Assembly: GCF_007748075.1 (NCBI RefSeq)
Contig: NZ_CP036280.1
Span: 1,530,001 to 1,562,000, forward strand
From: Mucisphaera calidilacus
GTDB taxonomy: Bacteria; Planctomycetota; Phycisphaerae; Phycisphaerales; Phycisphaeraceae
Direction of reading: 5' to 3'
DNA: 32,000 nt
Shown here: positions 10,233 to 30,262 of the stretch, piece by piece
How positions within the stretch are numbered: position 1 is the stretch's first letter
Layout: each line of letters begins with the position of its first letter
Program-made: the position numbers and the translations under genes
The notes under the pieces: model-generated
Databases searched by the model: none
What the model was told of the DNA's origin: nothing
What the model saw: only the letters and a program-made list of their open reading frames with translations

Positions 10233-10277
10233 GGGCCCCCTCAGGCTTCGCTGTCGCTTCCCCCGGCTTCAAAAGAC

Positions 10278-13312: not shown

Positions 13313-13315
13313 CCC

Positions 13316-14272
13316 TCAACCACCACCCGCCGCATGAACCCCGCCACAAGCACACAACCCCGCCGGCAACCACGCCGCGGCACCCTTCGCCGGATGCCGC
13401 GCAGGCGGCAACGCCTCCAGCCGATCCAGAACCTCACGCCGGAAACGCGCCTCGCCAAACCCGTAAGCCGACGTCTCCGAACCCGGATAACGCTCCGCGA
13501 TCATCTCCACCAACCGCTCGATCCGGCTCTCAGGCAGCGGGTGCGTCGACAGCATCTCAATCCCCCCACCCCCGCCCGACGCATCCTTCAGGATCCGCAT
13601 CACCTGCACCTGCCCCAGAGGGTCATAGCCCAGCCGCGTCATGTAACGCAGCCCCAGCTCATCCGCCTGATGCTCCTGGTCACGCCCATACTTCAGCAGA
13701 TACATCCCCGCACCCAGCTCGCCCCCCACCAGCCCGAGCGTCGCCAGCCACGCATCATCCGTCGCCTGATCGATCGCGATACCCGCCGCGATCAGACCGA
13801 TCTGAATCCCCATCGCCTGCGTCATCTGCTGACCAATGTGCTGCGCCGTCACGTGACCCACCTCGTGCCCCAGAACCCCCGCCAGCTGAGCCTCATTCGT
13901 CATCCGCTCCAGCAGACCACGCGAAATAAAAACCTTCCCCCCCGGCAACGCAAATGCATTGATCACCGACGAGTCCACCACGTGAAACTCCCAAGGCAGC
14001 TGCGAACGCTCACTCACCGCCGCCAGCTGCTGACCGAGTTGTCGGACGTGCGCCACAATCTGCTCATCAGGTAAAGACCCGCCGTACTGCTCCAGAAACC
14101 CCGGAGCCGCCTCCCTGCCCAGACTGATCTCCTCCGACTCACTCAGAATGTTCAGCTGCGCCCGGCCCGTCGCCGGATTCGTCGAACACCCCACCGACAC
14201 CACCGCCGTGACCCATAAAACAGACACCCACAGCCACCAGCCCGCGATCCGTCGTTGCTCAAGCTTCATCAC
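13316..14272 (-). CDS. M48 family zinc metalloprotease, probable lipoprotein
   Basis: It has a signal peptide with a lipobox-like VSVGC. It also has INAFALPGGKVFISRGLL, an HEVGHV (HExxH) motif and a downstream E ligand region. It probably forms an operon with ubiE (3-nt gap). Confidence 0.8.
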   Translation of the reverse strand: MMKLEQRRIAGWWLWVSVLWVTAVVSVGCSTNPATGRAQLNILSESEEISLGREAAPGFLEQYGGSLPDEQIVAHVRQLGQQLAAVSERSQLPWEFHVVDSSVINAFALPGGKVFISRGLLERMTNEAQLAGVLGHEVGHVTAQHIGQQMTQAMGIQIGLIAAGIAIDQATDDAWLATLGLVGGELGAGMYLLKYGRDQEHQADELGLRYMTRLGYDPLGQVQVMRILKDASGGGGGIEMLSTHPLPESRIERLVEMIAERYPGSETSAYGFGEARFRREVLDRLEALPPARHPAKGAAAWLPAGLCACGGVHAAGGG

Positions 14273-14546
14273 TCCATTTTAGGGCACACCCACGCATCAG
14301 ACACGCCGCCCCGCCACAACCCCGCTCCAGCCCGCATCACCACCCCACACCACACAGCCCGCCCCGCCCGCATCCCCTATATCGGGCCTCCACTCCGGAC
14401 CTCAAAACCACTTGCTCCCCAAAGCAGCGCCTTTCTCCGATGAAAACAGGGCAGGCAAAGGGAAAACCCGATGCCCTGGCACGGAGCGCACGGGCGGGCA
14501 TGGCAGCCCCACAGGCAGGTAATCCTGAGCGTGTAGGAACAGGCGA

Positions 14547-15263
14547 ATGCCGAGCGAGCGACACATCAGTATTGAACGGTTTTTCAGCTTCCTCATCAGT
14601 GGCGACCGCCGCCAGGCGCACAGCCTCGTCGATGAGGCACTCGAAGGCGTCAACGACCCCGTCGAGATCATCGCCAACCTCATCTGGCCCTGCCTCGAAC
14701 AGCTCCACAAGCTCAACCGTGAAGACCAGCTCACCAACCTCGCCTACCACTACGCCACACGTCTCCTGCACCAGGTGATCGATCAGATCCAGCCCAAGCT
14801 CCCCTCACGCGGACGACGCAACCAGCGCATCCTCCTCACCTGTGGCGACGAACTCCTCGAAGAACTCGCCGCCCAGCTCGCCACCGACCTCCTCGAAGCC
14901 GACGGCTACGACGTCTTCCTCGCCGGTGGAGGCGTCGCCAACGACGAGATCGTCGAGGAACTCGGATCCATCAACGCCAACCGGCTCGTCGTCTTCGGCG
15001 TCATCCCCGCCACCGTCCCACAAACACGACAACTCATCGACCGACTCCACGACATCGGCGTCTGCCCCAACCTCCAGATCATCGTCGGCGGAGGCGTCTT
15101 CAACCGCGCCGAAGGACTCGCCGAAGAAATCGGCGCCGACCTCTGGGCGCTCGACCCCATCGAACTCGTCGAGGTCATCGACGAAGAACCCGAACGACGC
15201 ATGATCCCCGAGCAGCGAACCGTCGGACGACGACGCAAGCCTACCGGCAGGAACGCCGCCTGA
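14547..15263 (+). CDS. B12-binding-domain-like protein (helical cap plus Rossmann-like domain), canonical DxHxxG histidine absent
   Basis: The N-terminus ...FLISGDRRQAHSLVDEAL... resembles B12-binding_2. It is followed by RILLTCGDELLEELAAQLATDLLEADGYDVFLAGGGV...LQIIVGGGVF. The position of DxHxxG reads DELLEE, so the lower-axial His ligand is missing. Confidence 0.6.
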   Translation: MPSERHISIERFFSFLISGDRRQAHSLVDEALEGVNDPVEIIANLIWPCLEQLHKLNREDQLTNLAYHYATRLLHQVIDQIQPKLPSRGRRNQRILLTCGDELLEELAAQLATDLLEADGYDVFLAGGGVANDEIVEELGSINANRLVVFGVIPATVPQTRQLIDRLHDIGVCPNLQIIVGGGVFNRAEGLAEEIGADLWALDPIELVEVIDEEPERRMIPEQRTVGRRRKPTGRNAA

Positions 15264-15277
15264 TCACAGGACGAGCC

Positions 15278-15598
15278 ATGACCGACAACAAGAACCAGGA
15301 CCGACGCAGACACCCACGCTGGCCCATCGAAAAGCCCGTCAAGGTCCGCGACCGCACCACCGGACGCTACCTCGCCGGGCAAAGCCTCGACGCCTCATGG
15401 TCAGGCATCCGACTCCGATTCACCAACCCCACCAACCTCCGGCCCGGCCAGACCGTCGACGTCTCCCTCCCCGACGACGCCCAACGCGGCTTCCTGCGCT
15501 CCGAAGCCCTCATCCCCGCCGCCGTCGTCCGCGTCGACAACCACGACACCATCGCACTCAGACTCGGCATCGACACCCCGCAGCGACAAGCCGCCTGA
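15278..15598 (+). CDS. PilZ domain protein (putative c-di-GMP receptor)
   Basis: 106 aa. It has RRRHPRWP (RxxxR) and DASWSGIRL (D/NxSxxG) at typical spacing. It starts 14 nt after the upstream gene and has an AGGA Shine-Dalgarno sequence, so the two are probably an operon. Confidence 0.7.
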   Translation: MTDNKNQDRRRHPRWPIEKPVKVRDRTTGRYLAGQSLDASWSGIRLRFTNPTNLRPGQTVDVSLPDDAQRGFLRSEALIPAAVVRVDNHDTIALRLGIDTPQRQAA

Positions 15599-15616: not shown

Positions 15617-17152
15617 TCAGCCGAGGATGCGCAGACGGATATTCTCGGTGTTCGGCGGCTCAGCGATCAGGTCATAGCCCGAAGCGCCCGTAACCTCCGC
15701 GTGGATGAGTTCGCCCGGCACGAACCGCTCGTTGGCGACGACATAAGTGATGCCGTCGACACCCGGGGCCTGGTGGGGGCCGCGGCCCACGTGCCAATGC
15801 ATGTCCGCCAGAGGGTCGTCGGAATCAAGCCCGTCCGGCGGAGCAGGGAGGGCTTCGTCGATGAGCACCGGCAACTCTGCCGCGTCCTCGGCGAGCTGCT
15901 CGTTAGCCTCGATGGCCACCTGCTGCTGAGTGAGCATGAGCTCCTCCACCCGCGCACCCACCTCAGCGTCCTCGATGGCCTCTCCCTTCGCATAAAGCGA
16001 GCCCGCCGGCGTACCCGGCTCGGGCGAGTAAGGAAACACACCCAGAGCCTCGAAGCCAAAGTCGCGCACGAACCCGACGAGTTCCTCGTGCTCGGCCCGG
16101 GTCTCGCCGGGGAAGCCCGAGATCAGGGTCGTCCGGATAGCGATACCCGGGATCCGCTCCCGGAGCTTCTCCAAAAGGGTCTCGATCAGGTTCCGACTCG
16201 TCTTCCGCCGCATCAAGTCGAGGACGCGGTCGTTGATGTGCTGCAGGGGCATGTCGATGTACTTCACCACGCTGTCGAGAGAAGCGATGGTGTCGATCAT
16301 CTCGTCCGTGAAGCACGAGGGGTAGGCATACATCAGCCGCAGCCACCCGGAACCGTGCTGCCGGGTCACGGCATCGAGCTCGCGGAGCATCCCCGACAGC
16401 CCCGCCGCGTAGTCGATATCCTCGCCGAAACTCGTCGTGTCCTGCCCGATCAGGTTGAGCTCAAAAGCACCGTCGGCCATGAGCTCGTGGGCCTCGGCGA
16501 TCAGCCGGTCCACCGGCTTGGAACGCATCTTCCCACGGATCGACGGGATCGTGCAGAAAGCGCAGTTCTGGTTGCACCCCTCGGAGATGCGCAGGTAGGC
16601 ATAGTGCCGCGGCGTCAGACGCATGCGTGCGTTGTCCGGCTCGTGGTAACCCGGGGTCTCGATTTCACGACGCCGCTTGGCAATCGCGTCGTTGGTCGCG
16701 ATGCTCGAATAAACGGGCAACTCCACAAGAACATCATCGCCCGACGAGGTGTTGCCACGGACGGCCGCCGTGATCCGATCGCGGTCGAAGACGCCGATGA
16801 TGGCATCGACGCCGGGAACCCAGTCCAGAATCTTCGCGCGGTGCCGCTGGACCAGGCAGCCCGCCACGACCACACGCTGGACCTCACCCGACTTCTTACG
16901 CTCAACAGCCCGGCTGATCTCGTCCACGGACTCCTGCTTGGACGCTTCGAGAAACCCGCAGGTGTTGATGATGATCGCGTCGGGCCCGTCGTCCTCAGGA
17001 ACGATGGCGATGCCGTCCTCGGCGAGCAGGCCCAGCATCTTCTCGCTGTCGACGAGGTTCTTCGGGCATCCCAGGGAAACCATCGCGACACGACGCACAT
17101 CAGCGGCTGGCGGCTGGGTACCCGGACTCGGCTTTGCCGTGCTCTGGCTCAA
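15617..17152 (-). CDS. rimO: ribosomal protein S12 methylthiotransferase RimO (radical SAM MTTase)
   Basis: It has VAMVSLGCPKNLVDSEKMLGLL (RimO N-terminal signature), the radical SAM cluster motif CNQNCAFC and a C-terminal TRAM-like region. The start codon is uncertain: TTG at 17152, or an internal GTG/ATG up to 23 codons downstream. Confidence 0.88.
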   Translation of the reverse strand: MSQSTAKPSPGTQPPAADVRRVAMVSLGCPKNLVDSEKMLGLLAEDGIAIVPEDDGPDAIIINTCGFLEASKQESVDEISRAVERKKSGEVQRVVVAGCLVQRHRAKILDWVPGVDAIIGVFDRDRITAAVRGNTSSGDDVLVELPVYSSIATNDAIAKRRREIETPGYHEPDNARMRLTPRHYAYLRISEGCNQNCAFCTIPSIRGKMRSKPVDRLIAEAHELMADGAFELNLIGQDTTSFGEDIDYAAGLSGMLRELDAVTRQHGSGWLRLMYAYPSCFTDEMIDTIASLDSVVKYIDMPLQHINDRVLDLMRRKTSRNLIETLLEKLRERIPGIAIRTTLISGFPGETRAEHEELVGFVRDFGFEALGVFPYSPEPGTPAGSLYAKGEAIEDAEVGARVEELMLTQQQVAIEANEQLAEDAAELPVLIDEALPAPPDGLDSDDPLADMHWHVGRGPHQAPGVDGITYVVANERFVPGELIHAEVTGASGYDLIAEPPNTENIRLRILG

Positions 17153-17408
17153 GGCTGGGGCTCCGTTTCGTGGGGGTTGCGACTTGCTTCGCAGCAGGGA
17201 CAGCGTTACAACTCTATCAGGAGACCGACTTCAAGACCGGGCTTTCGCTCCTGATTTGATGGAGAAACCGCTCATCTCACGACGCGTGTCGTGTCCGTGG
17301 GCATCGCAGAACAAGTTGAATCAAGCCGTCATGGTTGGCGGTGTTCCACCACGTCCCGGCGTGTTCGATCGCGCGGACCGCTTCGGGCCTCTCAGGAAAT
17401 GAGCTTTC

Positions 17409-18617
17409 ATGAGTCATGTTTCGGGCATTCTCGAGATCGGCAGCCGACCCGATGGCCGTCTTCGGCAGCTGGGAACCAGTTACATCGCCTCGCCCTCGGA
17501 CCCGCTGATCCCCAAGCAGCTCATCGAGAAGTACGACCTGCGCTCCGGCCAGGCGCTGGAGGTGGAACTGGGCAAACCGGTTGGCGGCACCAAGGGCCAA
17601 AAACAGAACTCCGGCGGAAACAAGCCCAAACGCCAGCGCATCTCGGCAGTGGCTCCCGACGCACGCCGCGCAACCAGAGTGCTGACCGTCGAGGGCGTGG
17701 ACTCTGAAAAACTCGGCGAACTCCGACGCTTTGAAGACCTGACGACCATCGATCCCCAGCCGCGGATCGTGCTGGAGTACGAAGGCTGTCCCGCCGCCTG
17801 CCGGCTGATCGACCTCTTCTGCCCCATCGGCTTCGGCCAGCGCGGGATGATTGTCTCGCCACCCAAAGCGGGCAAGACAACGCTCCTCCATAACATCGCG
17901 AACGCCGTCTCACGCAACCATCCCGAGGCCGAGGTCTTCGCGCTGCTCATCGACGAGCGCCCCGAAGAAGTGACCGACTTCCGACGCAACGTGCCCTGCA
18001 CCGTCTGGGCCTCCTCCAACGACCACACCCCCGACCGACACTGCGGCCTCGCCGTGCTGGCGATCGATCGTGCCCGCAGACTGGCCGAAGAGGGCAAGAA
18101 CGTCGTCATGCTCCTCGACTCGCTGACGCGTCTCGGCCGTGCGTTCAACACCGCTCCCGGGATGCAGGGAACCGGCCGCACGCTCTCCGGAGGGATCGAC
18201 GCCGGCGCGCTCGGCGTGCCCAAACAGCTCTTCGGCGCGGCTCGAAAATTCGAGGAAGGCGGATCCCTCTCCATCATCGCCACAGCCCTCATCGACACCG
18301 GATCGCAGGGCGACCAGGTGATCTTCGAGGAGTTCAAGGGCACGGGCAACATGGAGCTGATCCTCGACCGCAAGATCGCCGAGCGACGACTCTTCCCCGC
18401 AATCGACCTCGCCGCTTCGGGAACACGCAAGGAAGAGAAGCTGATGCCCGAGGCAGAGATCACGACCGTCAACGCCCTGCGTCGACGCCTGCTGAACATG
18501 CAGCCGATCACGCAGATCGAGCAGCTGCTCCGCGCCCTCGAACGCTTCCCGACAAACGCCGATCTCGTGGGATCACCCCAGTCCCCCGGGAACCCTCAGG
18601 CCACGCAGCGCGTCTGA
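17409..18617 (+). CDS. rho: transcription termination factor Rho (no N-terminal helix bundle; basic insertion in RNA-binding domain)
   Basis: It has PPKAGKTTLL (Walker A), LLIDERPEEV, GGSLSIIATALIDTGS, EEFKGTGNMEL and RRLFPAIDL. An in-frame TGA at 17400-17402 precludes an N-terminal extension. An AGGAAA Shine-Dalgarno sequence lies 10 nt upstream. Confidence 0.93.
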   Translation: MSHVSGILEIGSRPDGRLRQLGTSYIASPSDPLIPKQLIEKYDLRSGQALEVELGKPVGGTKGQKQNSGGNKPKRQRISAVAPDARRATRVLTVEGVDSEKLGELRRFEDLTTIDPQPRIVLEYEGCPAACRLIDLFCPIGFGQRGMIVSPPKAGKTTLLHNIANAVSRNHPEAEVFALLIDERPEEVTDFRRNVPCTVWASSNDHTPDRHCGLAVLAIDRARRLAEEGKNVVMLLDSLTRLGRAFNTAPGMQGTGRTLSGGIDAGALGVPKQLFGAARKFEEGGSLSIIATALIDTGSQGDQVIFEEFKGTGNMELILDRKIAERRLFPAIDLAASGTRKEEKLMPEAEITTVNALRRRLLNMQPITQIEQLLRALERFPTNADLVGSPQSPGNPQATQRV

Positions 18618-18620
18618 ACC

Positions 18621-21407
18621 CTAACGGCTGCCGCTGTGGGCGTCGTCAAAACGAAGCAAACGCGTGAGCATCGAAGGCCCGCGCGCCTCCCGGATGCCCA
18701 CCCGGATAGGCGTGCTCTGAATGTCGCCGCCGACGTCATTGAAACGAAAACGCTCGATGACCGACTGCCCGGGGTTGAGCGAGGCGATGATCCGTTCCTT
18801 GCTCTGTCGCCCTCGCATCGACGCAAAGCCGTACAGCGACTGCGGGAATTCCGAGAGATTCGTCACCACCATGATCGCGACGGCGTCGATCGCACCCTCC
18901 TCACCCGCCACCAGCGAAAGCGATGAGCTGAGCTGGATCTCCTTGAGCCCCAGTTCCAGGGGCAGCGTGAGATCAATGTCGTAGTTGCGGCCCGCCGCGA
19001 AGGTCGCACGCGCCGTAAGCTGCTTGAGCCCCGAAACCTCTTGAATCGGAAAGCTCATGCCGATGGGCAGACGCATGGTCGCGCCGGAATCGAGAATGAA
19101 ATCATGCTGACGCGGCTGGATACGCCACTCCGGCGGACCGATAAATCGCAGACGCCCCTGCATCGTCACCGGGAAGGGGTTCGTCAGCGAGATCTCGCGG
19201 CGATGGACGATCTGCCGGGAGGGAATAAAGTCGTCATCAATGGTGAAGGAAGCACGAAGCCGCGCCAGATCGACATCAATCCCCTGAACGAAGATGGGCA
19301 GCTCGCCGAGAGTGAGCAGGTGCTGACGACCCACACGCTCAACCGAGGTGGTGTTGCCCCAGATGTCGGTCACGGTAGGGTTGGGCCCGAGGTACATCGC
19401 CAGCGTGTCGCGTCGGTCTTCGACGTCCCACAGAACCATCAGCGACCCGGGGTCGCCATCGAGAACCTTGGCGTGTCGCTGACCTCCGAGGTTGAGCCGG
19501 GTGACGTACCGCCGCTCGGCGAGCTGCTGGGCGACGTTCGCGAAGGCGGGCAGCAGCGGATCAGGAAGCAGAGAGTCGCGTCGCTCAAAACCCGCGGTCC
19601 ACGGCTTCGGGAGACTCACGCCGCTCTCACTCACGATCCAGCCGACAACCATTCTCCGAACCAGCGATGAGAGCCTCTGACGGTGAGGGTACAGCTCCGC
19701 GTCAGGCTCGAGCAGGTGCAGGCTGTGCTCCAGAGGCGGCGAACGCCAGGCCTCAAGATAACGCTCCAGTGTGCCGGCGTTGATGCTCTCGGGCACGTCG
19801 ATCGCATAGCCGACATCGCTGGGCATGTCATCGCGTCGCTGCTGATCCAGCCGCCAGGGAAGGTGGATGCGTGGCGAAGGACTCAGCTTGCCGAGCTTGA
19901 GCTCGATCTCACGCGCCATCCCCGCAAGACGGTCAACGAAGAACGGCTCATCAGATTCGAGAAGCCCAAGGTGCCAGTCGCGGATGCGCTGCCCGTGCCG
20001 CAGCATCACCGGCGCAACATAAGGATCCCACAGGTTCGCGTCGGTGAGGAGCATCGCCATCGGGCTGTTGGTCTCCACACCCGGCACGAGCGCGAGCGCA
20101 GAGGGCAGCGGACTGAATGAAAGCCCCACCAGACGGTTACGCGCCATGATCCGTCGCAGCAACGCCTCCAGCTCGTGCTGCTCGCGATTGAGGCTCTCCA
20201 GCGTCGTTCCGGGCTGCCAGACACTGAGAATCACACTCCGCAGCCCGGTCTGGTCCAGAATCTCGGGGATCAGATCACGCTCGTGCGTGGTCACGCCCTC
20301 AGCAACAAGCGTGAATCGATCCAGATCCGAGGAGATGCGCGGACGCCTTGGCGGCAGGTAACCCAGCGCACTGACCGAACGTGCCAGAGGATTACGCCCG
20401 ATCCCGCCGCCCTGATCGACCTCAAACACGGACATCTCGAGCAGATACCAGCCGTAACCCGGGAGCTCCGGCTGCCACGACCACCGGTCACTGGTACCGT
20501 CGCCGAGAAGCCATGTCCCGCGATCCACACGCCGACGGTCATGGTCGAACACACCGATCTCGACCCGAAGCATCTGGCCGGTGAGGTCACGCACATTCGC
20601 CTCGATAACCGGCTCCTCAGGAGCGACGATCAGGTTCGTGTCGTACTGCGTGCCGATCTCGACGTGAGGCAACAGCCAGACGCCGATGTCGTCGATCCAC
20701 ATCTGCGCATCAAGGTCCTCCAGCACAATCTGCTGATTGCCCAGGGGATTCTCAGGCGAGGGTTCCGGCTGAAGCAGTTCGATCTCAAGGCCGATCCACG
20801 CCGCGTCGGGGTAGATGCCGATGAGCTTCACCGAGGCCCAGACCCAGTTGCCCTCAGCGTCCAGAGGCTCGGTGCTTCGCTCACTGCCGGGGATACGGTT
20901 GCCCTTCTTGTCGAGAAAATAAGCCCGGATCCGCCCCGCCGCACGCGTAACATCCTCGGTCCGAACACGCGCGGTGATCATGTAGTCACTGCGTGGCAGC
21001 ACGGGGAGCGCACCCACCTGGAGATAGGCCCCGGCGTTGCCGCCATCGAGTGCGAGGTGCAACGCGTAGTCGCCCGAGGAACGGTGGGTGTCGTCGAACC
21101 CGACCTTGTTGAAGGAGGGATACCCCCGTCGCGCGATCAGCTCGGCGTGGACCGGCTGGTTGCGGAAGGTCGCGTTGGGATTCATCGGGTCGCGGCCGAT
21201 GGCATACCAGTACTTCGGCATGGCGTAGCTGGCACCGATCTTCACGCCTTGCTCGTTGCGTTCCTCGAAATCAAAGAGCTGCTCAAGTCGCTTCGGGTTG
21301 ACCAGCACCTGCTCCCGGGCAAGTGCATACGGCGCCAAGCAGAGGACCACAGTAGCCGCGCACAGCAGCCAAAGCGTCCAGCGGGCCTGTCGCGACACGA
21401 AGTACAT
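18621..21407 (-). CDS. large secreted or membrane-anchored protein of unknown function (928 aa)
   Basis: This is a long uninterrupted ORF with ordinary amino-acid composition. The N-terminal hydrophobic segment is WTLWLLCAATVVLCLAPYALA. Residues about 100-230 look like a jelly-roll/CBM-like module by eye (my impression only). No catalytic motif was recognised. Confidence 0.7.
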   Translation of the reverse strand: MYFVSRQARWTLWLLCAATVVLCLAPYALAREQVLVNPKRLEQLFDFEERNEQGVKIGASYAMPKYWYAIGRDPMNPNATFRNQPVHAELIARRGYPSFNKVGFDDTHRSSGDYALHLALDGGNAGAYLQVGALPVLPRSDYMITARVRTEDVTRAAGRIRAYFLDKKGNRIPGSERSTEPLDAEGNWVWASVKLIGIYPDAAWIGLEIELLQPEPSPENPLGNQQIVLEDLDAQMWIDDIGVWLLPHVEIGTQYDTNLIVAPEEPVIEANVRDLTGQMLRVEIGVFDHDRRRVDRGTWLLGDGTSDRWSWQPELPGYGWYLLEMSVFEVDQGGGIGRNPLARSVSALGYLPPRRPRISSDLDRFTLVAEGVTTHERDLIPEILDQTGLRSVILSVWQPGTTLESLNREQHELEALLRRIMARNRLVGLSFSPLPSALALVPGVETNSPMAMLLTDANLWDPYVAPVMLRHGQRIRDWHLGLLESDEPFFVDRLAGMAREIELKLGKLSPSPRIHLPWRLDQQRRDDMPSDVGYAIDVPESINAGTLERYLEAWRSPPLEHSLHLLEPDAELYPHRQRLSSLVRRMVVGWIVSESGVSLPKPWTAGFERRDSLLPDPLLPAFANVAQQLAERRYVTRLNLGGQRHAKVLDGDPGSLMVLWDVEDRRDTLAMYLGPNPTVTDIWGNTTSVERVGRQHLLTLGELPIFVQGIDVDLARLRASFTIDDDFIPSRQIVHRREISLTNPFPVTMQGRLRFIGPPEWRIQPRQHDFILDSGATMRLPIGMSFPIQEVSGLKQLTARATFAAGRNYDIDLTLPLELGLKEIQLSSSLSLVAGEEGAIDAVAIMVVTNLSEFPQSLYGFASMRGRQSKERIIASLNPGQSVIERFRFNDVGGDIQSTPIRVGIREARGPSMLTRLLRFDDAHSGSR

Positions 21408-21730
21408 GAACGGGTTATCGGGTGTTGAGGGCTGCGAGGTGGAGAATCCCTACTCCCCCTAAAACCCGCGTGGCTCTGTCCACCACGCCCAGGCAAGGGC
21501 CTGCCCGCAGAATCCAACGCCACGACACCCACGCTGGGGTGATTCACCCCCTCTCAAAGCCGACGGAATGAAAATCGATACCTCCGTGTATCATGATAAA
21601 GGGCTTGCCCAGCTTGCCCACAACCTCCGAGGCGACGGAGCGCCTACGCAACAACCGACTTTGGTTTGGTGATGGATACCGGCCGGGTCACACTTCCTGT
21701 ACCCACGGACCACTACCGGTCCGCTCAGGA

Positions 21731-22198
21731 ATGGCGATGCCCGAGCGAAACACATCGCGACGTCTCCGACTCGTCCGGCCAGGCGAAGGCCGACGCGCAT
21801 CACGTCGCCCCGAAACGCTACGACGCACACCCGCCGAAGCAACACCCCCCAAACTCACCGCCACCGACCCCCGATGGGTCATGGCCGTCCGCGTCGCCGA
21901 GGCCATGGAACCCGCAGGCGTCCTCCCCGCCGACAAACGCGAACGACTCACACGCATGGGCAGGATGATGGGCCTCACACCCTTCGACATCAGCCTCATC
22001 GTCGCCGTCATTCAGGACCAGGTCCGACGCGGCCACCAACTCGACCGCGCCGCCTCCGCCGGCGCCGACCAGCTCGCCATGATCCTCCTCAAGAAGCAGG
22101 CCAACCCCCGCTCCCTCCGCAGCTGGCTCCCCGCCATCATCGTCACCGCGGCCATCCTCGCCGCCGAAGCCGCCCTCCTCATTGCCTGGCTAACCTGA
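21731..22198 (+). CDS. hypothetical protein with Arg-rich N-terminus and single C-terminal TM helix
   Basis: ATG at 21731 or 21737 (AGGA at 21727-21730) is preferred over the track start at 21593. Codons before 21731 are mixed (TTG, CTT, GGT, TGT), while those after follow the strict C/A-ending style of + genes in this arm. The C-terminus is WLPAIIVTAAILAAEAALLIAWL. Confidence 0.5.
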   Translation: MAMPERNTSRRLRLVRPGEGRRASRRPETLRRTPAEATPPKLTATDPRWVMAVRVAEAMEPAGVLPADKRERLTRMGRMMGLTPFDISLIVAVIQDQVRRGHQLDRAASAGADQLAMILLKKQANPRSLRSWLPAIIVTAAILAAEAALLIAWLT

Positions 22199-22459
22199 GT
22201 GAGCACAGATCACACTCGTGTCATACTCGGCAGTGTGTGTGCGCACCAACCTTGAAAGTGAACGAGTTTCGCGTGTCACTTTGTGCGCCAGAATGGCCCG
22301 ATTTCGACCCAAACCGAACCGAAACGAATCAAAACGACCCGAAACCGACTCAAATTACTTTGCGCAGCACCCAAATCTCACGTAAATCGGCGCAAACATC
22401 ACACTTCGTGCGCGCTGCTGATCCCCGGTCTCATGTTGAAATGGAAGTCTGGGCAAACT
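22199..22459. other. AT-richer, motif-dense intergenic region between convergent genes; candidate replication-origin or regulatory DNA, or an unannotated ncRNA
   Basis: The region is visibly lower in GC than its flanks. It has six (T)TGCGC-type motifs, near-identical direct repeats ATCACACTCGTG (22210) and ATCACACTTCGTG (22398), and paired CGACCC(A/G)AAACCGA(A/C)C repeats (22305, 22335) in a T-poor tract. It lies 450 bp from the strand-skew polarity switch. No canonical DnaA box was found by eye. Confidence 0.2.
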
Positions 22460-22912
22460 TCAAGCCGTCTTGCGCACCTTGGCATCAGGCTCGTCCGGCC
22501 GCTTCGACACCCCCTCCGACCCCGCGCGATCGGTCGTCGGGCCGGGTGACGAGTCCTCTTCCTCCGGGCCGAAAAGCGTGTCTTCCAACGCCTCCGCGTA
22601 CTTCTCCGCCGTGCCCAGCGTCTTTTCCAACGCGCTGTGCCTGGCCCGGATCTTGATCAGCAGCTGACGCGCCCAGACAAACTCCGTGCCCAGAATCACC
22701 AGACCTACCGGGACCACGAACCAGCCCAGCGGCGCGGGTAGGATAAACAGCACCAGGCCGATGAGGATGATTGTGAAGCCAATGATGCCTATCCCAATAC
22801 GGCGCAACCACTTAGGCGTGCGGACGCGTGCCGGCAGACGGCCGGTGACCGGCAGGCCCTCCGTCTTGTGCGGCAGCGGCGTGTTCTCGTGGACGGATCG
22901 CTTCATGCTCAC
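22460..22912 (-). CDS. PGPGW-domain small membrane protein
   Basis: 150 aa. IIGFTIILIGLVLFILPAPLGWFVVPVGLVILGTEFVWARQLL matches the two-helix PGPGW family layout (here PAPLGW). Confidence 0.65.
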   Translation of the reverse strand: MSMKRSVHENTPLPHKTEGLPVTGRLPARVRTPKWLRRIGIGIIGFTIILIGLVLFILPAPLGWFVVPVGLVILGTEFVWARQLLIKIRARHSALEKTLGTAEKYAEALEDTLFGPEEEDSSPGPTTDRAGSEGVSKRPDEPDAKVRKTA

Positions 22913-22973
22913 GTTGTCGTATCGGCCAAGGGGTGTTTTCGCATTGGCTCACAGGGGTTTACGTTCGTGAACA

Positions 22974-24194
22974 TCAAAGGCTTTCGGTGCCGCCGAGCAG
23001 CCGGATCGCCTCGTCGAGGTCCTTGTCGCCCCGCCCCGAGACGTTGATCAGCACGACCTGTTCCTTGGGCAACGAGCTCGCCAGGTCCAACGCGTGGGCG
23101 ATGGCGTGGGAGGACTCGAGCGCGGGCAGGATCCCCTCGTCGCGGGTGAAAGCCTTGAACGCGTCGAGTGCCGCTTCGTCGGTGCAGGCGGTGTAGCGGA
23201 CGCGGCCGGCGTCATGCCAGTAGGAATGCTCGGGCCCGACGCCGGGGTAGTCAAGACCGGCGGAGATGGAATGGACGTCGGAGGTCTGGCCGTCGTCGTT
23301 CTGCAGGACGTAGGAGAGGGATCCGTGGAGCACGCCGGGCTGGCCGAAGTTCAGGGGCGCGGCGTGGTCGCCGAGGATCTGGGACCGGCCGCCGGCCTCG
23401 ACGCCGACGAGTCCGACCTGGGTGTCGTTGATGAAGGGGTAGAAGATGCCGGCGGCGTTGGAGCCGCCGCCAACACAGGCAACGATCTGGTCGGGGAGTC
23501 GTCCGATCTGCTCGAGGCACTGCTGGCGTGCTTCGCGGCCCATGACGGACTGGAAGTTGCGGACGATCATCGGGAAGGGGTGGGGCCCGACGACGGAGCC
23601 GATGATGTAGTGGGTGTTTTCGGAGGTGGCCATCCAGTCGCGCATGGCGGCGTTGGTGGCGTCCTTGAGGGTGCAGGAGCCGGATTCGACGGGGACGACG
23701 TTGGCGCCCATGAGTTTCATGCGCTGGACGTTGGGCCGTTGTCGGCGGATGTCCTCGGTGCCCATGAAGACGTCGCACTGGAGGTCCATGCAGGCGGCTG
23801 CGGTGGCGGTGGCGACGCCGTGCTGCCCGGCGCCGGTCTCGGCGATGATGCGTTTCTTGCCCATGCGTTTGGTGAGCAGGGCCTGGCCGAGTGAGTTGTT
23901 GATCTTGTGGGCGCCGGTGTGGGCGAGGTCTTCGCGTTTGAGCCAGATCTGAGCTCCGCCGGCGCGGGCGGTGAGTCGTCGGGCGAACTGCAGGGGTGTG
24001 GGTCGTCCGACGTAGACCTTGAGCAGTTCTTCGAATTCCCCGGTGAAGGCGGTGTCGTTGATGGCGTCGTTGTAGGCGGCTTCGAGGGCGCGGACGGCGG
24101 TGATGAGGGTTTCGGGGATGTAGACCCCGCCGAACTGACCGAAGTAGCCGTTGGCGTCGGGGTTGGTGATGATGGGCGAGGTCGAGGTACTCAT
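22974..24194 (-). CDS. trpB: tryptophan synthase beta subunit
   Basis: [29 protein letters not shown] (PLP lysine), GGGSNAAG and the 406-aa length all fit TrpB. No trpA is adjacent. Confidence 0.95.
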
Positions 24195-24271
24195 GGAGCT
24201 ATTTTAGCCGAGTCGGGGCGTGGTGACAGGGTGATTCGGGACGCGGTGTGAATGTAGTGAGGGGCGTGGGA

Positions 24272-25354
24272 TCAGAGGTTGGCGAGTCGTTGGGCGCGGT
24301 CTTCGGCGATGAGGGCATCGACGAGCGGGGCGAGTTTGCCGGCCATGACTTCCTGGAGGTTGAAGCTCTGGTTGAGTCGGTGGTCGACGGCGATGTTGTC
24401 TTTATAGCGGTAGGTTCGGATGCGTTCGCTGCGTGCGCCGGAGCCGATCATGGAGGACCGCTGTTCGGATCGCTGGGCGTCGGCCTGCTCTCGGGCGTGC
24501 TGGTAGAGCCGGGCGCGGAGGAGTTGCCAGGCCTTCTCGCGGTTCTGCTGCTGGCTCTTGGACTCCTGCATGCGGACCTCGATGCCGGTGGGTTTGTGGA
24601 TGAGGTGGACGGCGGTGGCGACCTTGTTGACGTTCTGGCCGCCGGGGCCTTGTGCGGTGGTGATGTGGATGTCGACGTCTTCGGGTGCGATCTGGACTTC
24701 GACTTCTTCGGGTTCGGCGAGGACGGCGACGGTGGCGGTGGAGGTGTGGACGCGTCCCTGGGTTTCGGTGGCGGGCACGCGTTTGACGCAGTGGACGCCT
24801 CCTTCGTAGCCGAGTCCCTGCCAGACGGCTTCGCCTTTGACGCTGACGGTGGCGGCGCGGATGCCGCCCTGCTCGCCGGGCGAGACGGCCATGAGTTCGA
24901 ATTTCCAGCGTCGTTCGGCGGCGAATCGCTGGAACATCTCGAGGATGTCGCCTGCCCAGAGCGCGGCCTCGTCGCCTCCGGTTCCGGCGCGTACTTCGAG
25001 GATGACGGCGGCGACGGATCGGTCGTCGGCGGTGACGAGTTCGTGGCTGATTTCGTCGAGGAGTTGTTCGGCCTGGTCGCGTAGTCGCGGCAGTTCGTCT
25101 TTGGCGAGCGCGGTGAGTTCGGGGTCTTCGGCGTCGTCGATGAGTTGCTGGTGCTGGTCGGCCTCGTCGGTGAGTTTGCGCCAGTGTGCGAAGCGTGTGG
25201 CGACGGGTTCGAGGGCGGCTCGGCGTACGGAGAGCTGCCTGAGTCTGTCGGGGTCGCGCAGGACGTCCGCGGACTGGAGTTGCTGGTTGATCCCGGCGAA
25301 TTCTTCGCTTAGCGCGTCGAGCTTGCCGATGAGGCGCTGCTGAAAGTCAGCCAT
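24272..25354 (-). CDS. prfA: peptide chain release factor 1
   Basis: It has [12 protein letters not shown] (RF1 PxT tripeptide motif) and [10 protein letters not shown] (GGQ). Length is 360 aa. Confidence 0.95.
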
Positions 25355-25387
25355 GCCGGCCGTTCACCGTAGCGTGAGGGGTTGGTC

Positions 25388-25651
25388 TCAGCCCTTTTTC
25401 TTGAAGTAGCCGCCGGCGAACTTCCGCTGGAACTTCTCGACGCGACCTGCGGTGTCGAGGAACTTCTGCTTGCCGGTGAAGAAGGGGTGCGAGGCGGAAG
25501 AGATGTCCACCTTGACGAGGGGGTATTCCTTGCCGTCGTCCCATGTGGTGGTGTCTTTGGTCTGGACGGTGGAGCGCGTGATGAAGCGCTGTCCCGCGGA
25601 GACGTCCTCGAAGACAACGGGTCGGTAGGTTGGGTGGATGTCCTTCTTCAT
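25388..25651 (-). CDS. rpmE: 50S ribosomal protein L31, type B (Cys-less, zinc-independent form)
   Basis: [16 protein letters not shown]...HPFFTGKQK... starts at ATG 25651. There is no cysteine in the 87 aa. The track's longer start at 25735 adds non-conserved residues and overlaps the divergent neighbour. Confidence 0.9.
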
Positions 25652-25726
25652 GGCAAGCTCCTGGGCCTTTCCGGCCCCATCAGTCGAGCCGAATAATGTA
25701 ACCTTTTCCGGGTCAGGAGCCAAATC

Positions 25727-26650
25727 GTGACCCAAGAAACGTCAACGCCTACCTATCACACCCTTCTCAACGGCCAGTTCTGCGAGCCGGGCGAGGCCCG
25801 AATTTCGCTGGACGATGCTGGGTTCCAGCATGGTATCGGACTCTTTGAGACGCTTTATGTGCAAAATAGTCGGGTTTTTCGCGGTCGAGAGCATCTGAGT
25901 CGGCTAGCTAACTCCGCTCGTGAGCTGGGGTTACTGGAGGATCTGGATGTTGACCCGCTGCTGGCCTCGCTCGATAAGACGATTGAACATAATCACTTAG
26001 ATCGCGCACGGCTGCGTCTGACGCTGACGGCGGGTGCGGTGAGTCTGCTTCCGGGGCGTGAGGCACCGGCGCGGCCGATGCCGACACTGGCGATTCAGCC
26101 GTCGCCGGTGACGGCGTATGACCCTCAGTATTTTGAGGATGGTGTGCTGGTGCTGATTGCGCCGTCGCATGTGAATCCGCTGGACCCGACGGCGGGTCAC
26201 AAGACGCTGAACTACTGGCAGCGTCTGCGGTCGCTTCGTCAGGCGGCGGCGGCGGGTGCCGGCGAGGCGGTCTGGCTGTCGGTGACGAATCACCTGGCGT
26301 CGGGTGCGATCAGCAATCTGTTTCTGGTGCGTGACGACACGATTCAGACGCCTATCGCGCATGGCGAGGAGCCGGAGGGTTCGCTTCAGGCACCGGTGCT
26401 GCCCGGGGTGACGCGTGGCGCGGTTCTGGAGTGTGCCGAGGCGTTGGGGATCACGGCGGTGAAGGCGATGCTGACGATTGATGATCTGCTGACGGCGGAC
26501 GAGGTGTTTCTGACGAACTCGGGTTGGCAGGTGCTGCCGGTGACGCGTGTGGAGCGTTCGCAGATCGGTGACGGTCGGCCCGGGCCGGTGACGGGTCGGG
26601 TGCGTGAGGCGGTGTTGGGGTTGATCGAGCGGGAGACGGCGCAGAGGTGA
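25727..26650 (+). CDS. class IV (fold type IV) PLP-dependent aminotransferase family: aminodeoxychorismate lyase or branched-chain/D-amino-acid aminotransferase-like
   Basis: 307 aa with a GTG start. It has [22 protein letters not shown] (candidate PLP Lys), [10 protein letters not shown] and EVFLTNS. Substrate class cannot be decided by eye. Confidence 0.75.
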
Positions 26651-26748
26651 TGCGGCGTTTTTCGACGAGTCTGGATTGGTTTTGAGGTTGGGAGGGTTTC
26701 ACACACAGCAACCTCGGGGACTCAGTTGTGGTGTGCCAGCCGGGGGTG

Positions 26749-27771
26749 TCAGGTGAGTGTGATGTTGAGTTGGTAGTCGCGGGATTCGCCGGGCTGGATC
26801 CGGGGTCGGGGGTTTGATCCGTCGGAGTCGGGTCCGGGTGTGGGTCCGACGAAGGGTTCGATTCCGCAGACGTATCCGGCGGGTCCGACGTGCTGCCAGA
26901 CGGTGAGGCCCGGGAGTTGTTGAGTGTGGTAGGCGAAGGTGAGTTTGAGTTTGCGGTGCGGGTTAATGACGGAGGCTTGGGCGAGTCCCTGGGCGTCGGA
27001 TTCGGGTTGGATGACGACGCCGCCCTCGCCTGCGCCGGCGTGGTCGTCGCGGGGGGCGGTGATGTGCTTGAAGGCGTTGGGGTCCTGATCGTGGAGGAGG
27101 GTTCCCCAGCGAGACTGGATGTCGCCTTCGATATCGAGTTGTGTGCCTTCGGTGAGGAGCGGGTGTCCGAGGTTGCAGTGGTAGAGGAGGGCTTCGGGTA
27201 TGGGTGTGTCGCCTCGGTTGGTGAGTGTGTCGTGGATGTGGATGGCGGGTTGGCCGAGCGTTCCGCTGATCGAGCGTTTTGTTTCGACGCAGGGGCCGAA
27301 CATGGAGGTCTGGTCGATGCGGAGTTTGAGGGTGAAGTCGCGTTTGCCTGTGCGGGGGTCGGCGTTGTCGACGGCGAGGATGGCGGCTGGCGTGAGGTGG
27401 TGTCTTCCGTGGACGCCTGCCTGCCAGGGTTCGCCTCCTTCGACGGGTCTTCCGACGTGGAGGGGTCCGCAGGTGGTGACGAGCCCCCCCGCCCAGCTCG
27501 CGAGCCATGCCATGTCGACGCCGTCGGCGCGTTCGGCTGGTTTGAGGCCGTTCTGGGTGAGGTAGGCGAGTGGACAGTCCATGTAGGTGGCGTCGTAGAT
27601 GTCGCCGCCTCGGTCGAGCGCGACGGTGTATCGGAGTCCGGCGCCGGTGTCGATGAAGGCGACGCGTGTGTTCTGTCCGCCTAGGGGCTGTGGTGCGTCG
27701 AGTGTTCCGGTGCGGATGCCGCCGGCCTGTGCGGGGCATTCCATGAGGGCGTAGTCGATGGTTGTGGGCAT
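26749..27771 (-). CDS. DUF4432 / aldose-1-epimerase-like superfamily protein
   Basis: 340 aa and beta-rich. Segments such as FIDTGAGLRYTVALDRGGDIYDATY and GVHGRHHLTPA resemble DUF4432 proteins found in sugar loci. It lies downstream of the AraC gene on the same strand. Confidence 0.6.
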   Translation of the reverse strand: MPTTIDYALMECPAQAGGIRTGTLDAPQPLGGQNTRVAFIDTGAGLRYTVALDRGGDIYDATYMDCPLAYLTQNGLKPAERADGVDMAWLASWAGGLVTTCGPLHVGRPVEGGEPWQAGVHGRHHLTPAAILAVDNADPRTGKRDFTLKLRIDQTSMFGPCVETKRSISGTLGQPAIHIHDTLTNRGDTPIPEALLYHCNLGHPLLTEGTQLDIEGDIQSRWGTLLHDQDPNAFKHITAPRDDHAGAGEGGVVIQPESDAQGLAQASVINPHRKLKLTFAYHTQQLPGLTVWQHVGPAGYVCGIEPFVGPTPGPDSDGSNPRPRIQPGESRDYQLNITLT

Positions 27772-27819
27772 GTTCGCGGCTCCGAGGGTGCTACAGCTTA
27801 AGGCGGAATTGTCTGGTGT

Positions 27820-28665
27820 TCATGTCGCTGTCTGGCCGTGGCCCTTGTGTTTGCGGAGGTTGGTGGGCGAGTGTCCGGTGTGCTGTCTGACGTGTCGTGC
27901 GAGGGAGTGTGTGGAGGTGTAGCCTGACTGCCTTGCGATGTCTGTGATGGCGAGGGTGGTCTGTGTGATGAGGTTGACGGCGGCTTCGACGCGGTGCCTG
28001 GAGAGGTAGGCGTGGGGCGTTTCGCCGACGCGTTCGTGGAAGACGCGACAGAGGTGTTCGCGTGAGATGCCGAATCGGTCGGCGACGCGTTTGATGGACC
28101 ATGGTGCGAGAGGCTGTCGGACGAGTTGATCGACGGCCTGCTGTGCGGGGGGGAGTTGTTCGCGTCGTGTCTGTCGGACGTGGTCGAAGAGTCTGGTGAT
28201 GTAGTTGTAGGCCAAGGCGGCGATCTGGGTCGGGTCGGTGCCTCGCGCGGGTTCGGTGGCGTCGATGAGTTGGTCGAGGTTGTCGAGGAGGGTGGGGTTG
28301 GAGGCGGTTTCGATGACGGGTCCGCGTATGGCTCGCAGCGCGTCGGCGTGTTGGTGGACGCCTGCGCCGACGAGACCGATGAAGGCGCATCGGTAGGGTC
28401 CGTCGTTGGGGTCGGGGCGGTAGTAGGTGGTGGGTTCGCCGTAGCGGAAGATGATGAGCGATCCCTGGGGTGCGTGGTGCTGGCCGTTGCTGTCTTCGAT
28501 GACGAGTCGGCCGAGGGTTGAGGCCTGGATGACGACGATGCCAGCGGGCTGTCGGTGTGTGTTGTCGAACCAGTAGGCTCGTCCGGCGGGGTTGTGTTCG
28601 CGGCCGCACTGGCGGAGTTCCCAGAGTGTGGGGGAGTTGGCCGGTATTCGGGGGCGGGCACGCAT
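27820..28665 (-). CDS. AraC family transcriptional regulator
   Basis: The C-terminal HTH pair is IKRVADRFGISREHLCRVFHERVGETPHAYLSRHRVEAAVNLI...ITDIARQSGYTSTHSLARHVRQHTGHSPTNLRK. ATG 28665 is preferred over GTG 28692, because the extra 9 codons (AGA AGA AGT ... ATA) are atypical for this genome. Confidence 0.85.
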   Translation of the reverse strand: MRARPRIPANSPTLWELRQCGREHNPAGRAYWFDNTHRQPAGIVVIQASTLGRLVIEDSNGQHHAPQGSLIIFRYGEPTTYYRPDPNDGPYRCAFIGLVGAGVHQHADALRAIRGPVIETASNPTLLDNLDQLIDATEPARGTDPTQIAALAYNYITRLFDHVRQTRREQLPPAQQAVDQLVRQPLAPWSIKRVADRFGISREHLCRVFHERVGETPHAYLSRHRVEAAVNLITQTTLAITDIARQSGYTSTHSLARHVRQHTGHSPTNLRKHKGHGQTAT

Positions 28666-28765
28666 TATCACATATTGCACACTTCTTCTCACACAATCAA
28701 GTTATTCATGGGTTTTATTCGTGATATACCTCACGAACTGGCTTTTGTTCTGATCACCCCCCTGC

Positions 28766-30226
28766 ATGAGGTTTTTTGCGATGGCGACTGAAGAGAAGGC
28801 GGGTCATGCGGCCCACATGAAGAAATCGGACGAGCGTGGTCTGCCTGGCGAGCTGCCGCGGCCGATCAACCTGACGTTTCTGGGTGCGGGTTCGATGTTC
28901 TGCCCGGTGCTGAGTCGTGACCTTGTGTTGATTCCGGGTGGTGCTCGGGGTGAGATCCGTCTGGTGGATGTTGATGCTGATCGTCTGGCGACGATGCACA
29001 AGCTGGTGGGCAAGCTGGTGAAGGATCTGGGGCGCGAGGATGACTGGGTGGTCACGTCGCACACGGATCGTCGTGCGGCGTTGCCTGGGACGGACTACGC
29101 GGTGTGCTGCGTTGAGGTTTCGGGCCCGGCGTGTGTGGCGATGGAAAACGACATCCCGCTGAAGTACGGGGTGGATCAGTGCATCGGCGACACGATGGGT
29201 CCGGGCGGCCTGTTCAAGGGTTTGCGGACGATCCCGGTGTTTCTGGACATCCTGCGTGACATGAAGGAGCTGTGTCCGCGTGCGTTGATGCTGAATTACA
29301 CGAACCCGATGAGCATGATGTGCCTGGCGGCGGGTCGTGCTGTGCCTGAGATTTCGGTGGTGGGTCTGTGCCACAGCGTGCAGGGGACGAGTCATCAGTT
29401 GGCGGAGAAGGCGGGCGTGCCTTACGAGGAGCTTGCGTGGGAGTGCGCGGGGATCAATCACCTGGCGTGGTTCACGCGGCTGGAGCACCGGGGAGAGAAT
29501 CTTTATGAAAAGGTTCTGTACCGGCAGTTCCGTGAGCTGGTGGATCAGGCGATGGCGGCGGAGACGCCTGACGATGAGTTGCAGGACATTGTGCGTGCGG
29601 ACATGTGTCTGAACTTTGGGGCGTACATCACGGAGAGTTCGGGTCACTTGTCGGAGTACCTGCCTTATTATCGCAAGTCGGATTCGGGTCGGAAGCTGCT
29701 GCGTTCGGGGTATTGCGGTGAGAGTCGTTTTTATGCGTCGAACTGGCCGACGTGGCGTTCGGATTCGGACAAGCACCGGCTGGAGATCATCGAGGGGACG
29801 CGTGATTTCGATCTGGAGCGTTCGTGGGAGTACGCGTCGTGGATCATCGAGGCGTGCGAAAAAGATGTGCCTTACCGGATTCACGGGAACGTGATGAACA
29901 ACGACGGGAGTTCGGGTGAGGCGGGCAAGCTGATCACGAATCTGCCGGGTGATGGTTGTGTGGAGGTGGCGTGCGTGATCGATCAGAACGGTGTGAACCC
30001 GACGCGTTACGGTGCGTTGCCGGCGCAGATGGCTCATATCTGCGCGAGCAACATGGCGTTCTTTGATCTGGCGGCGACGGCGGTGGTTGAGGGTTCCCGG
30101 GAGGCGGCGACGCACGCGTTGATGCTGGACCCGCTGACGCAGGCGGTCTGCACGCCTGGGGAAATCAAGTCCATGTCGGATGAGATGTTTGATGCAGAAT
30201 CGGAGTACCTGGGGCATTATGCTTAG
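28766..30226 (+). CDS. glycoside hydrolase family 4 (NAD+/Mn2+-dependent alpha-galactosidase/alpha-glucosidase)
   Basis: It has INLTFLGAGSMFCP (Rossmann GxGS), MLNYTNPMSMM and VGLCHSVQGT (the GH4 Cys-His metal site). The true start may be ATG 28817 (MKKSDERG...). Confidence 0.85.
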   Translation: MRFFAMATEEKAGHAAHMKKSDERGLPGELPRPINLTFLGAGSMFCPVLSRDLVLIPGGARGEIRLVDVDADRLATMHKLVGKLVKDLGREDDWVVTSHTDRRAALPGTDYAVCCVEVSGPACVAMENDIPLKYGVDQCIGDTMGPGGLFKGLRTIPVFLDILRDMKELCPRALMLNYTNPMSMMCLAAGRAVPEISVVGLCHSVQGTSHQLAEKAGVPYEELAWECAGINHLAWFTRLEHRGENLYEKVLYRQFRELVDQAMAAETPDDELQDIVRADMCLNFGAYITESSGHLSEYLPYYRKSDSGRKLLRSGYCGESRFYASNWPTWRSDSDKHRLEIIEGTRDFDLERSWEYASWIIEACEKDVPYRIHGNVMNNDGSSGEAGKLITNLPGDGCVEVACVIDQNGVNPTRYGALPAQMAHICASNMAFFDLAATAVVEGSREAATHALMLDPLTQAVCTPGEIKSMSDEMFDAESEYLGHYA

Positions 30227-30262
30227 CGGCGTGATGGTTCGTGTCTTCGTGTCCAGGTTGCC

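Follow-up and report, generated by a model that had tools for sequence, protein, structure and literature searches.

A replication-type switch in strand bias between trpB and a PGPGW gene of Mucisphaera calidilacus: a candidate origin-side divergence point

Two neighbouring minus-strand genes of the planctomycete Mucisphaera calidilacus, trpB and the gene of a PGPGW-family membrane protein, are written in opposite synonymous codons, which raises the question of whether replication forks part between them. We analyzed 32,000 nucleotides around this junction (hereafter, the window) in the genome of strain Pan265 (CP036280.1), a mesophile of the class Phycisphaerae with 63.9% G+C (PMC8882080). 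The trpB product encoded in the window matches the NCBI protein of M. calidilacus with 100% identity. A first-pass annotation, made from the sequence alone, had described an origin-type reversal of skew inside the 61-bp spacer between the two genes. We confirm a replication-type switch in strand bias that has the polarity of an origin and is centred on this spacer. We propose, with a probability of about 0.6, that it is the origin-side divergence point of two replichores, and that this point is non-canonical in make-up, lacking both dnaA and DnaA boxes.

Reading frames were picked by their GC3 > GC1 > GC2 pattern, and families were named using Pfam and NCBIfam, with 29 open reading frames (ORFs) in the Pfam scan. 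Skews were calculated at third codon positions (GC3 skew and AT3 skew) and refer to the plus strand unless the coding strand is stated. The switch was located in two ways, by a single-step maximum-likelihood change point and by a logistic curve fitted to the G/(G+C) of third positions. The sequences compared were the trpB locus (L001) and a second locus (L087) of a congener, the Mucisphaera sp. metagenome-assembled genome (MAG), both on one MAG-derived contig (ERZ26867466 ctg28227; 3.25 Mb, 11x, 'linear'); the trpB locus of a Phycisphaeraceae MAG (L002/L003) and the AhpC-Ank locus in the genome of L002 (L090; GCA_040222855.1, contig JAVKCD010000003.1); the dnaA neighbourhood of Algisphaera agarilytica (L092), a member of the same family and the nearest cultured outgroup examined; a circular 3.75-Mb MAG (L004); and more distant Phycisphaeraceae (L005-L014, L023, and L083).

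Strand bias and its reversal

Throughout the left arm of the window (1-15,598), the plus strand is rich in C and A at third codon positions in genes of both orientations. GC3 skew ranges from -0.40 to -0.77 in 14 of the 15 genes of these 15.6 kb, the exception being a GIY-YIG ORF at +0.04, and AT3 skew from +0.55 to +1.0 (overall about -0.7 and +0.85). On the right arm (22,974-32,000) the plus strand is rich in G and T whichever way the genes point, with GC3 skews of +0.30 to +0.74 in all eight genes and AT3 skews of -0.08 to -0.90 (overall about +0.55 and -0.8). An excess of G travels with an excess of T, and C with A, on both arms, and all-site GC skew is -0.33 for the left arm and +0.25 for the right. 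When the coding strand is read instead, plus-strand genes of the left 15.6 kb have GC3 skews of about -0.7 and minus-strand genes of +0.4 to +0.75, and the signs are swapped in the right 9 kb. The skew is tied to the DNA strand, not to gene orientation.

For a bacterial chromosome, this asymmetry is extraordinarily large (GC3 skew is 0.5-0.8, AT3 skew reaches 0.9-1.0, and all-site GC skew is 0.25-0.4). No fewer than three related genomes share it: M. calidilacus, the Mucisphaera sp. MAG, and GCA_040222855.1 (window, L002, L087, and L088). The all-site skew of the window, about 0.3, compares with a bacterial excess given by SkewDB as 'typically around 2.5%' (PMC8941118). In the literature searched, we found no account of silent-site asymmetry this large in Planctomycetes and no report on skew or origin for Mucisphaera or Phycisphaerae.

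At the junction itself, the PGPGW gene prefers ACG to ACC (9 to 2), CCG to CCC (9 to 2), CTG to CTC (11 to 1), and GCG to GCC (7 to 2), whereas trpB has 24 ACC and no ACG, 17 CCC and 1 CCG, 34 GCC and 7 GCG, and 24 GAC and no GAT. Third-position counts of G and C are 77:48 in the PGPGW gene and 82:279 in trpB (Fisher p = 8e-15), giving coding-strand GC3 skews of +0.23 and -0.55. The codon counts agree with the opposite synonymous choice described in the first-pass annotation, which overstated the case in calling the PGPGW gene 'almost entirely' G/T-ending, as G or T ends just 61% of its codons. We suggest that the two genes use opposite synonymous codons because they sit on opposite sides of a divergence point.

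The change is neither instantaneous nor broad. The single-step model puts the change at 23,094 and improves the log-likelihood by 104 relative to a model without change; the logistic fit, in which the skew climbs from -0.50 to +0.56, is centred at 22,893, with a width parameter of 148 bp and a 10-90% span of about 650 bp. Steps no wider than 30 bp and width parameters from 300 bp upward are each worse by about 4.5 log-likelihood units. The fitted centre is about 20 bp from the 61-bp spacer, and the flip reaches about 300 bp into each neighbouring gene: on the plus strand, the 3' half of the PGPGW gene is of left-arm type (-0.35) and its 5' half is near 0, and the last ~200 bp of trpB (23,007-23,184) are intermediate (+0.14), with +0.6 beyond. 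The spacer that had been proposed to contain the switch thus holds its centre, to within about 20 bp, but does not confine it.

Along the plus strand, the flip runs from C/A-rich to G/T-rich (C>G to G>C), which is the polarity of an origin and the opposite of that of a terminus; the usual rule of a G+T-rich leading strand holds in Planctomycetes (PMC4070872), and the polarity assigned at first reading stands. The objection raised there, that prfA, rpmE, and trpB would be head-on to forks leaving such an origin, is indeed weak, given a median gene-strand bias of about 50% in Planctomycetes (PMC11040001). Strong GC3 and AT3 skews are coupled for 9-15 kb in both arms, which are at compositional equilibrium; the flip therefore reflects a durable change in the direction of replication, at an origin or a terminus, and neither arm is a recent arrival or looks recently misoriented.

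We propose that forks would cross 1-22.9 kb moving leftward and 22.9-32 kb moving rightward, and that a very strong replication-linked mutation bias of the usual sign would have rewritten third codon positions, the leading strand gaining G and T. C-to-T and A-to-G changes in the strand that stays single-stranded at the fork would be expected to produce such a gain. Given the lack of DnaA boxes, the origin would either have a non-canonical make-up or lie apart from dnaA. The irregularities around the flip would be scars of rearrangements at the divergence point. We infer both that this point would be the active origin and that mutation acted in this way.

Origin landmarks and switches in related genomes

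Sharp switches of this polarity also occur in relatives whose skew is just as extreme. In L002, a sharp negative-to-positive switch with a span of about 3.1 kb is centred at 17,855, inside the RimO-Rho spacer, which belongs to the same gene neighbourhood as the switch of the window and is 5 kb away in gene order. In L087, skew changes from -0.76 to +0.68 over about 1 kb, centred at 2,648, beside a 212-bp spacer between AhpC and Ank; the same DUF4432-GH4 gene cluster lies 5.4 kb from this switch and 3.8 kb from that of the window. At the trpB locus of the same contig (L001, 1-21,224), by contrast, there is a broad, weak gradient from positive to negative, in which the strand effect falls by stages across 20 kb, starting near +0.4 and ending near -0.45 (width parameter 3 kb or more). 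The sharp switch of that genome is 761 kb away. We considered that the L001 MAG might be a weak-skew genome with inverted polarity; L087, on the same contig, has full-strength, normally coupled skew and rules this out.

The AhpC-Ank locus in the genome of L002 (L090, 1-21,860) looks like a recently abandoned switch. Its left 3 kb (DLH, GT2, and CBS) are strongly negative, followed by about 17 kb, from NrdR to AhpC-Ank-GlgA, of weak and decoupled skew in which GC3 skew is weakly positive while AT3 skew is already of the opposite type. As a separate observation, convergent AhpC and Ank flank the switch in L087 (1,787-3,342; record position ~2.001 Mb), and the spacer between them, 212 bp there, is 10 bp in L090, a difference of about 200 bp located exactly at the switch.

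In Algisphaera agarilytica, AhpC-Ank-GlgA lies 7.5-12 kb from dnaA (GlgA at 7.5 kb). Here dnaA is followed by a 372-bp spacer (together L092 19,389-21,284), with a perfect TTATCCACA, one TTGTCCACA, and three weaker sites within 500 bp, and this box cluster directly downstream of dnaA is the probable oriC. The same AhpC, Ank, and GlgA neighbourhood bears the sharp switch of the Mucisphaera sp. MAG, and the genes around these switches therefore trace to an origin neighbourhood, one that is ancestrally origin-proximal. The two systems differ in that the window has none of these boxes and no dnaA, and in that Algisphaera skew is weak and follows gene orientation. An FHA-SpoIIE gene as a link to Algisphaera dnaA was considered and ruled out, the proteins sharing just 31% identity over the SpoIIE domain. 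A metagenome scan with Algisphaera DnaA returned DnaA loci of at most 56% identity alone, and no informative strong-skew relative.

Several results weigh against an origin at the flip. Neither dnaA nor dnaN occurs in the 32 kb, by Pfam search of the 29 ORFs and by tblastn with E. coli and Algisphaera DnaA, which bears out the absence of dnaA reported earlier. Within about 1.5 kb of the flip there is no site within one mismatch of TTATCCACA, the nearest (8,520 and 24,603) being inside genes, and no spacer near the flip holds a cluster of DnaA-box sites with up to two mismatches; the same scan found 5 sites in 500 bp beside Algisphaera dnaA as a positive control. No parS site with up to three mismatches occurs in the window, and the spacer at the fitted centre is just 61 bp long. 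The switch regions of the three genomes have no motif in common above chance. The switch lies between different genes in each of the three, so that a single inherited origin element is not demonstrable; the orthologous trpB locus of L001 is opposite in polarity to the window, which calls for a relocation; and we found no simple origin-spanning inversions that turn these arrangements into one another. Either there was a relocation of the switch, possibly with a swap between origin- and terminus-type roles at a single locus, or the contigs of the MAGs are unreliable at this scale. Finally, there are other skew discontinuities near the flip, at 15.6 and 21.5 kb, which we read as rearrangement scars. 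Of the origin as first claimed, the polarity and the lasting change of direction hold, and dnaA, a DnaA-box cluster, and parS are missing.

Other searches were likewise negative. No syntenic locus of the relatives contains dnaA, and a DnaA-box cluster was found at none of the three sharp switches (window, L002, and L087). In the shared-motif search, TTGTGCGC and GTGCGCAC occurred at near chance frequency. Family searches with the proteins beside the switch (201, 928, 320, and 166 aa) gave no replication-related match. No 28-bp XerC/D site within 10 mismatches of three dif sequences was found, which has little weight, as dif has never been predicted in Planctomycetes (PMC3025954).

The sole nearby non-coding DNA of origin size is the 261-bp spacer between the convergent 201-aa and PGPGW genes, but it is 0.4-0.7 kb left of the fitted centre. 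It has the lowest G+C of the neighbourhood (52%), with 40-mers of at least 60% A+T at 22,321-22,387 (richer AT tracts occur elsewhere, at 28,658-28,756), and no DnaA box. A repeat with a 10-bp period at 22,305-22,354, consisting of four copies of CGAACCAAAA (a 20-bp unit repeated 2.2 times) with phased A-tracts, may be bent DNA. A terminator-like hairpin (22,325-22,341, minus strand) overlaps this repeat.

In favour of the origin-side divergence point are the sharp switches of the same polarity, on or next to spacers, in relatives with equally extreme skew, and the fact that the sole switch of opposite polarity that we observed, in L001, is broad and coupled, as expected of a terminus. A special case of this reading, whose low probability is part of the figure given above and not an addition to it, is an active initiation site that is independent of DnaA boxes and has moved in evolution; in one variant, an origin was set up at a locus that is still terminus-type in a sister lineage. 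This possibility would explain why three related genomes have sharp negative-to-positive switches on three different, unrelated spacers, none with DnaA boxes, why the trpB locus is negative-to-positive in two genomes and positive-to-negative in the third, and why the AhpC-Ank locus in the genome of L002, strongly negative on its left and decaying on its right with AT3 skew already reversed, looks abandoned; in a phylum without gene-strand bias, a reversed direction of replication would be tolerable (PMC11040001). It rests, however, on MAG contigs, one of which (11x, 'linear') has its two switches just 761 kb apart in 3.25 Mb; ordinary origin-spanning inversions might explain much of the movement; and divergent DnaA boxes may be present. 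Doubtful, and less probable still, is the general proposition that the Mucisphaera group starts replication at DnaA-box-free sites that shift between close relatives; in one form of it, a locus of terminus type in one species would have become origin-type in two others. If initiation sites were mobile in this way, the asymmetry (silent-site GC about 0.7, AT about 0.9) would be a by-product of a replication mode that leaves one strand single-stranded for long.

Rearrangement history around the switch

The first-pass annotation named an inversion breakpoint or an assembly join as the alternative explanation of the flip. The adjacency of trpB and the PGPGW gene, with a recognisably homologous spacer, is present in L001 and in L002/L003, and the 61-bp spacer shares ...CGTAAACC...CTTGG... 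with the trpB-PGPGW spacers of these relatives. Because this junction is found in two relatives, the spacer is neither an assembly join nor a breakpoint.

Rearrangements did occur nearby. The order in both relatives is PilZ / trpB+ PGPGW+ 320aa+ ... 166aa- / RimO- Rho+ 931aa- / prfA-, and that of the window is PilZ / RimO- Rho+ 928aa- / 201aa+ PGPGW- trpB- / prfA-. Relative to them, block A (trpB-PGPGW-...-201 aa) is inverted and swapped with block B (RimO-Rho-928 aa), the 320-aa gene has been lost, and the 201-aa ORF, homologous to the 114- and 166-aa genes of the relatives, is inverted with respect to them. In all, there are four synteny breakpoints between the window and the two relatives, at 15.6, 21.5, 24.2, and 26.7 kb. 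The DUF4432-AraC-GH4-SBP cluster (SBP, solute-binding protein) is next to the aminotransferase gene in M. calidilacus only among the three genomes compared, lying ~166 kb from the trpB locus in the genome of L002 and ~770 kb from it in that of L001.

Block B (15,617-21,407) has a GC3 skew of about 0 and an AT3 skew that is still of left-arm type (+0.3 to +0.73), and its edges are sharp, exactly at the PilZ/RimO and 928/201 junctions, which are synteny breakpoints. We read it as a segment that was inverted recently and is still re-equilibrating; within the window, it alone has GC3 and AT3 skews that are decoupled. The order of the window is most simply reproduced by two nested inversions, of A+B and then, in what would be the later event, of B alone. 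This second, recent inversion would have restored the orientation of B and would therefore account for its neutral GC3 skew, which would now be crossing zero, the quicker AT3 skew having been reset before it. We infer that AT3 skew resets faster than GC3 skew after a change of orientation because displaced segments (block B and L090) carry decoupled skew.

A separate irregularity was seen in L002, where a 576-aa gene (13,302-15,032) between the 320-aa and 166-aa genes lacks strand skew and has a GC3 of 0.49, against about 0.78 in its neighbours. This gene is probably foreign DNA, gained recently, near the switch of that genome.

It is very unlikely that the flip is a mere rearrangement scar or assembly join, where segments with opposite skew were brought together and replication direction did not change. 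The four breakpoints, together with the decaying skew zones of relatives (L090 and the gradient in L088), do show that rearrangement is frequent compared with the time that skew takes to re-equilibrate, and of the 'many similar sharp flips' that the earlier annotation would have taken as a sign of rearrangement, the window shows a part, in the sharp discontinuities at 15.6 and 21.5 kb. Against a scar, the trpB-PGPGW junction is ancestral, as it occurs in L001, L002, and L003; the skew is coupled and of full strength over 9-15 kb on both arms, whereas displaced segments show AT3 skew reset and GC3 skew lagging; and a switch of the same polarity persists in the L002 neighbourhood despite saturated synonymous sites between the two genomes.

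Least probable is a replication terminus, at which forks would converge in a Mucisphaera group with inverted mutational polarity, that is, a C/A-rich leading strand; to our knowledge such a polarity is known in no bacterium. The missing origin landmarks, the convergence of flanking genes in several Phycisphaeraceae (trpB on one side, 928 aa-prfA-rpmE on the other), the variable region between them (a TIR island in L004, the foreign low-GC gene in L002, and local inversions), and the drift of the switch among relatives would all suit a terminus, but Planctomycetes obey the usual leading-strand rule (PMC4070872), the coupling of G with T is the normal leading-strand signature, the sharp negative-to-positive switch of the congener is at AhpC/Ank, a dnaA-proximal locus in Algisphaera, the sole positive-to-negative switch seen is broad, the wrong way round for a terminus here, and gene orientation carries little weight where gene-strand bias is about 50% (PMC11040001).

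Known systems and feature map

An origin-side divergence point at this flip would resemble bacterial oriC regions located from the GC-skew minimum (Lobry-type; Ori-Finder/DoriC) in its change from C>G to G>C, accompanied by the reverse change in A and T, and in its sharp transition, which is centred between genes and separates arms that are both at compositional equilibrium. It differs from them in having no DnaA-box cluster, dnaA/dnaN, or parS, in the 61-bp length of its central spacer, and in the magnitude of its skew. Origins away from dnaA are known, at gidA-mioC in E. coli and at hemE in Caulobacter, and these still have clustered DnaA boxes and an AT-rich unwinding element. The switch of the window is likewise away from dnaA among housekeeping genes, but boxes were sought there and not found.

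Inversions around the origin and terminus ('flip-flop' inversions) give X-shaped alignments between related bacterial genomes. The window is similar in that breakpoints cluster no more than a few kb from the switch, blocks A and B have traded places with A inverted, and the genes beside the switch differ between close relatives. It departs from that pattern in that a block caught in the middle of re-equilibration (GC3 skew about 0, AT3 skew reset) shows a recent event, and in that the switches are at non-homologous spacers. Animal mitochondrial genomes have silent-site asymmetry of comparable magnitude and the same coupling of G+T against C+A, ascribed there to single-strand deamination; they are strand-displacement replicons of one polarity, whereas M. 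calidilacus has a 3.49-Mb bacterial chromosome with a polarity switch.

If the divergence point is an active origin, it would be a bacterial origin away from dnaA and without recognisable DnaA boxes, in a phylum with atypical replication and division machinery. Strand bias here is large enough to invert synonymous codon choice between adjacent genes. The apparent resetting of AT3 before GC3 skew could be a practical clock to date rearrangements and to tell true switches from scars. That the orthologous locus of a congener has the opposite polarity suggests that, in a lineage lacking gene-strand bias, replication architecture can be reorganised within short evolutionary times.

Table 1 Features of the window around the strand-bias switch (coordinates in the window).
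Feature	Coordinates	Strand	Remarks
Amidohydrolase, beta-lactamase/M23, HAD, radical SAM protein, DUF2237, SGL, DUF805, GGT			Genes of the left part
GIY-YIG, tRNA-Pro, FHA-GAF-SpoIIE, UbiE, M48, B12-binding protein, PilZ			Left part, continued
RimO	15617-17152	-	Block B
Rho	17409-18617	+	Block B
928-aa protein	18621-21407	-	Block B; function unknown
201-aa ORF	21593-22198	+	GC3 skew -0.51, left-arm type; no known family matched
261-bp spacer	22199-22459		Between convergent 201-aa and PGPGW genes
PGPGW-family membrane protein gene	22460-22912	-	
Strand-bias transition zone	22568-23218		Logistic centre 22,893
PGPGW-trpB spacer	22913-22973		61 bp; without repeat or DnaA box
trpB	22974-24194	-	
prfA, rpmE, class IV aminotransferase			Beyond trpB
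Synteny breakpoint	26651-26748		Aminotransferase gene versus DUF4432-AraC-GH4-SBP cluster
DUF4432, AraC, GH4, solute-binding protein			Right part

On the left arm, the DUF805, GGT, and GIY-YIG genes (7,823-10,743), between SGL and tRNA-Pro (10,588-10,663, minus strand), are missing from both relatives. The skew of GGT is fully of left-arm type and that of the GIY-YIG ORF (9,990-10,232) is neutral; this ORF beside tRNA-Pro is probably a recent insertion of a mobile or homing-endonuclease-like gene.

In more distant Phycisphaeraceae, a skew flip after trpB at first appeared to be family-wide, and we rejected it as an orientation effect: coding strands are C-rich (gene-wise GC3 skew -0.1 to -0.36 in L005-L014, L023, and L083) and genes converge there, and just L004 may be strand-wise. 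Convergent genes in these genomes mimic an origin-type flip and are a trap for skew-based origin calls. Downstream of trpB in L004 (11,280-13,905), a TIR-domain gene of low G+C (43-52%) precedes a stretch of about 1.5 kb in which no genes are called and which contains four copies of a palindromic 20-mer (GACAGGCAGGAATGCCTGTC) as well as tandem units of ~85 bp; the overall skew changes sign there.

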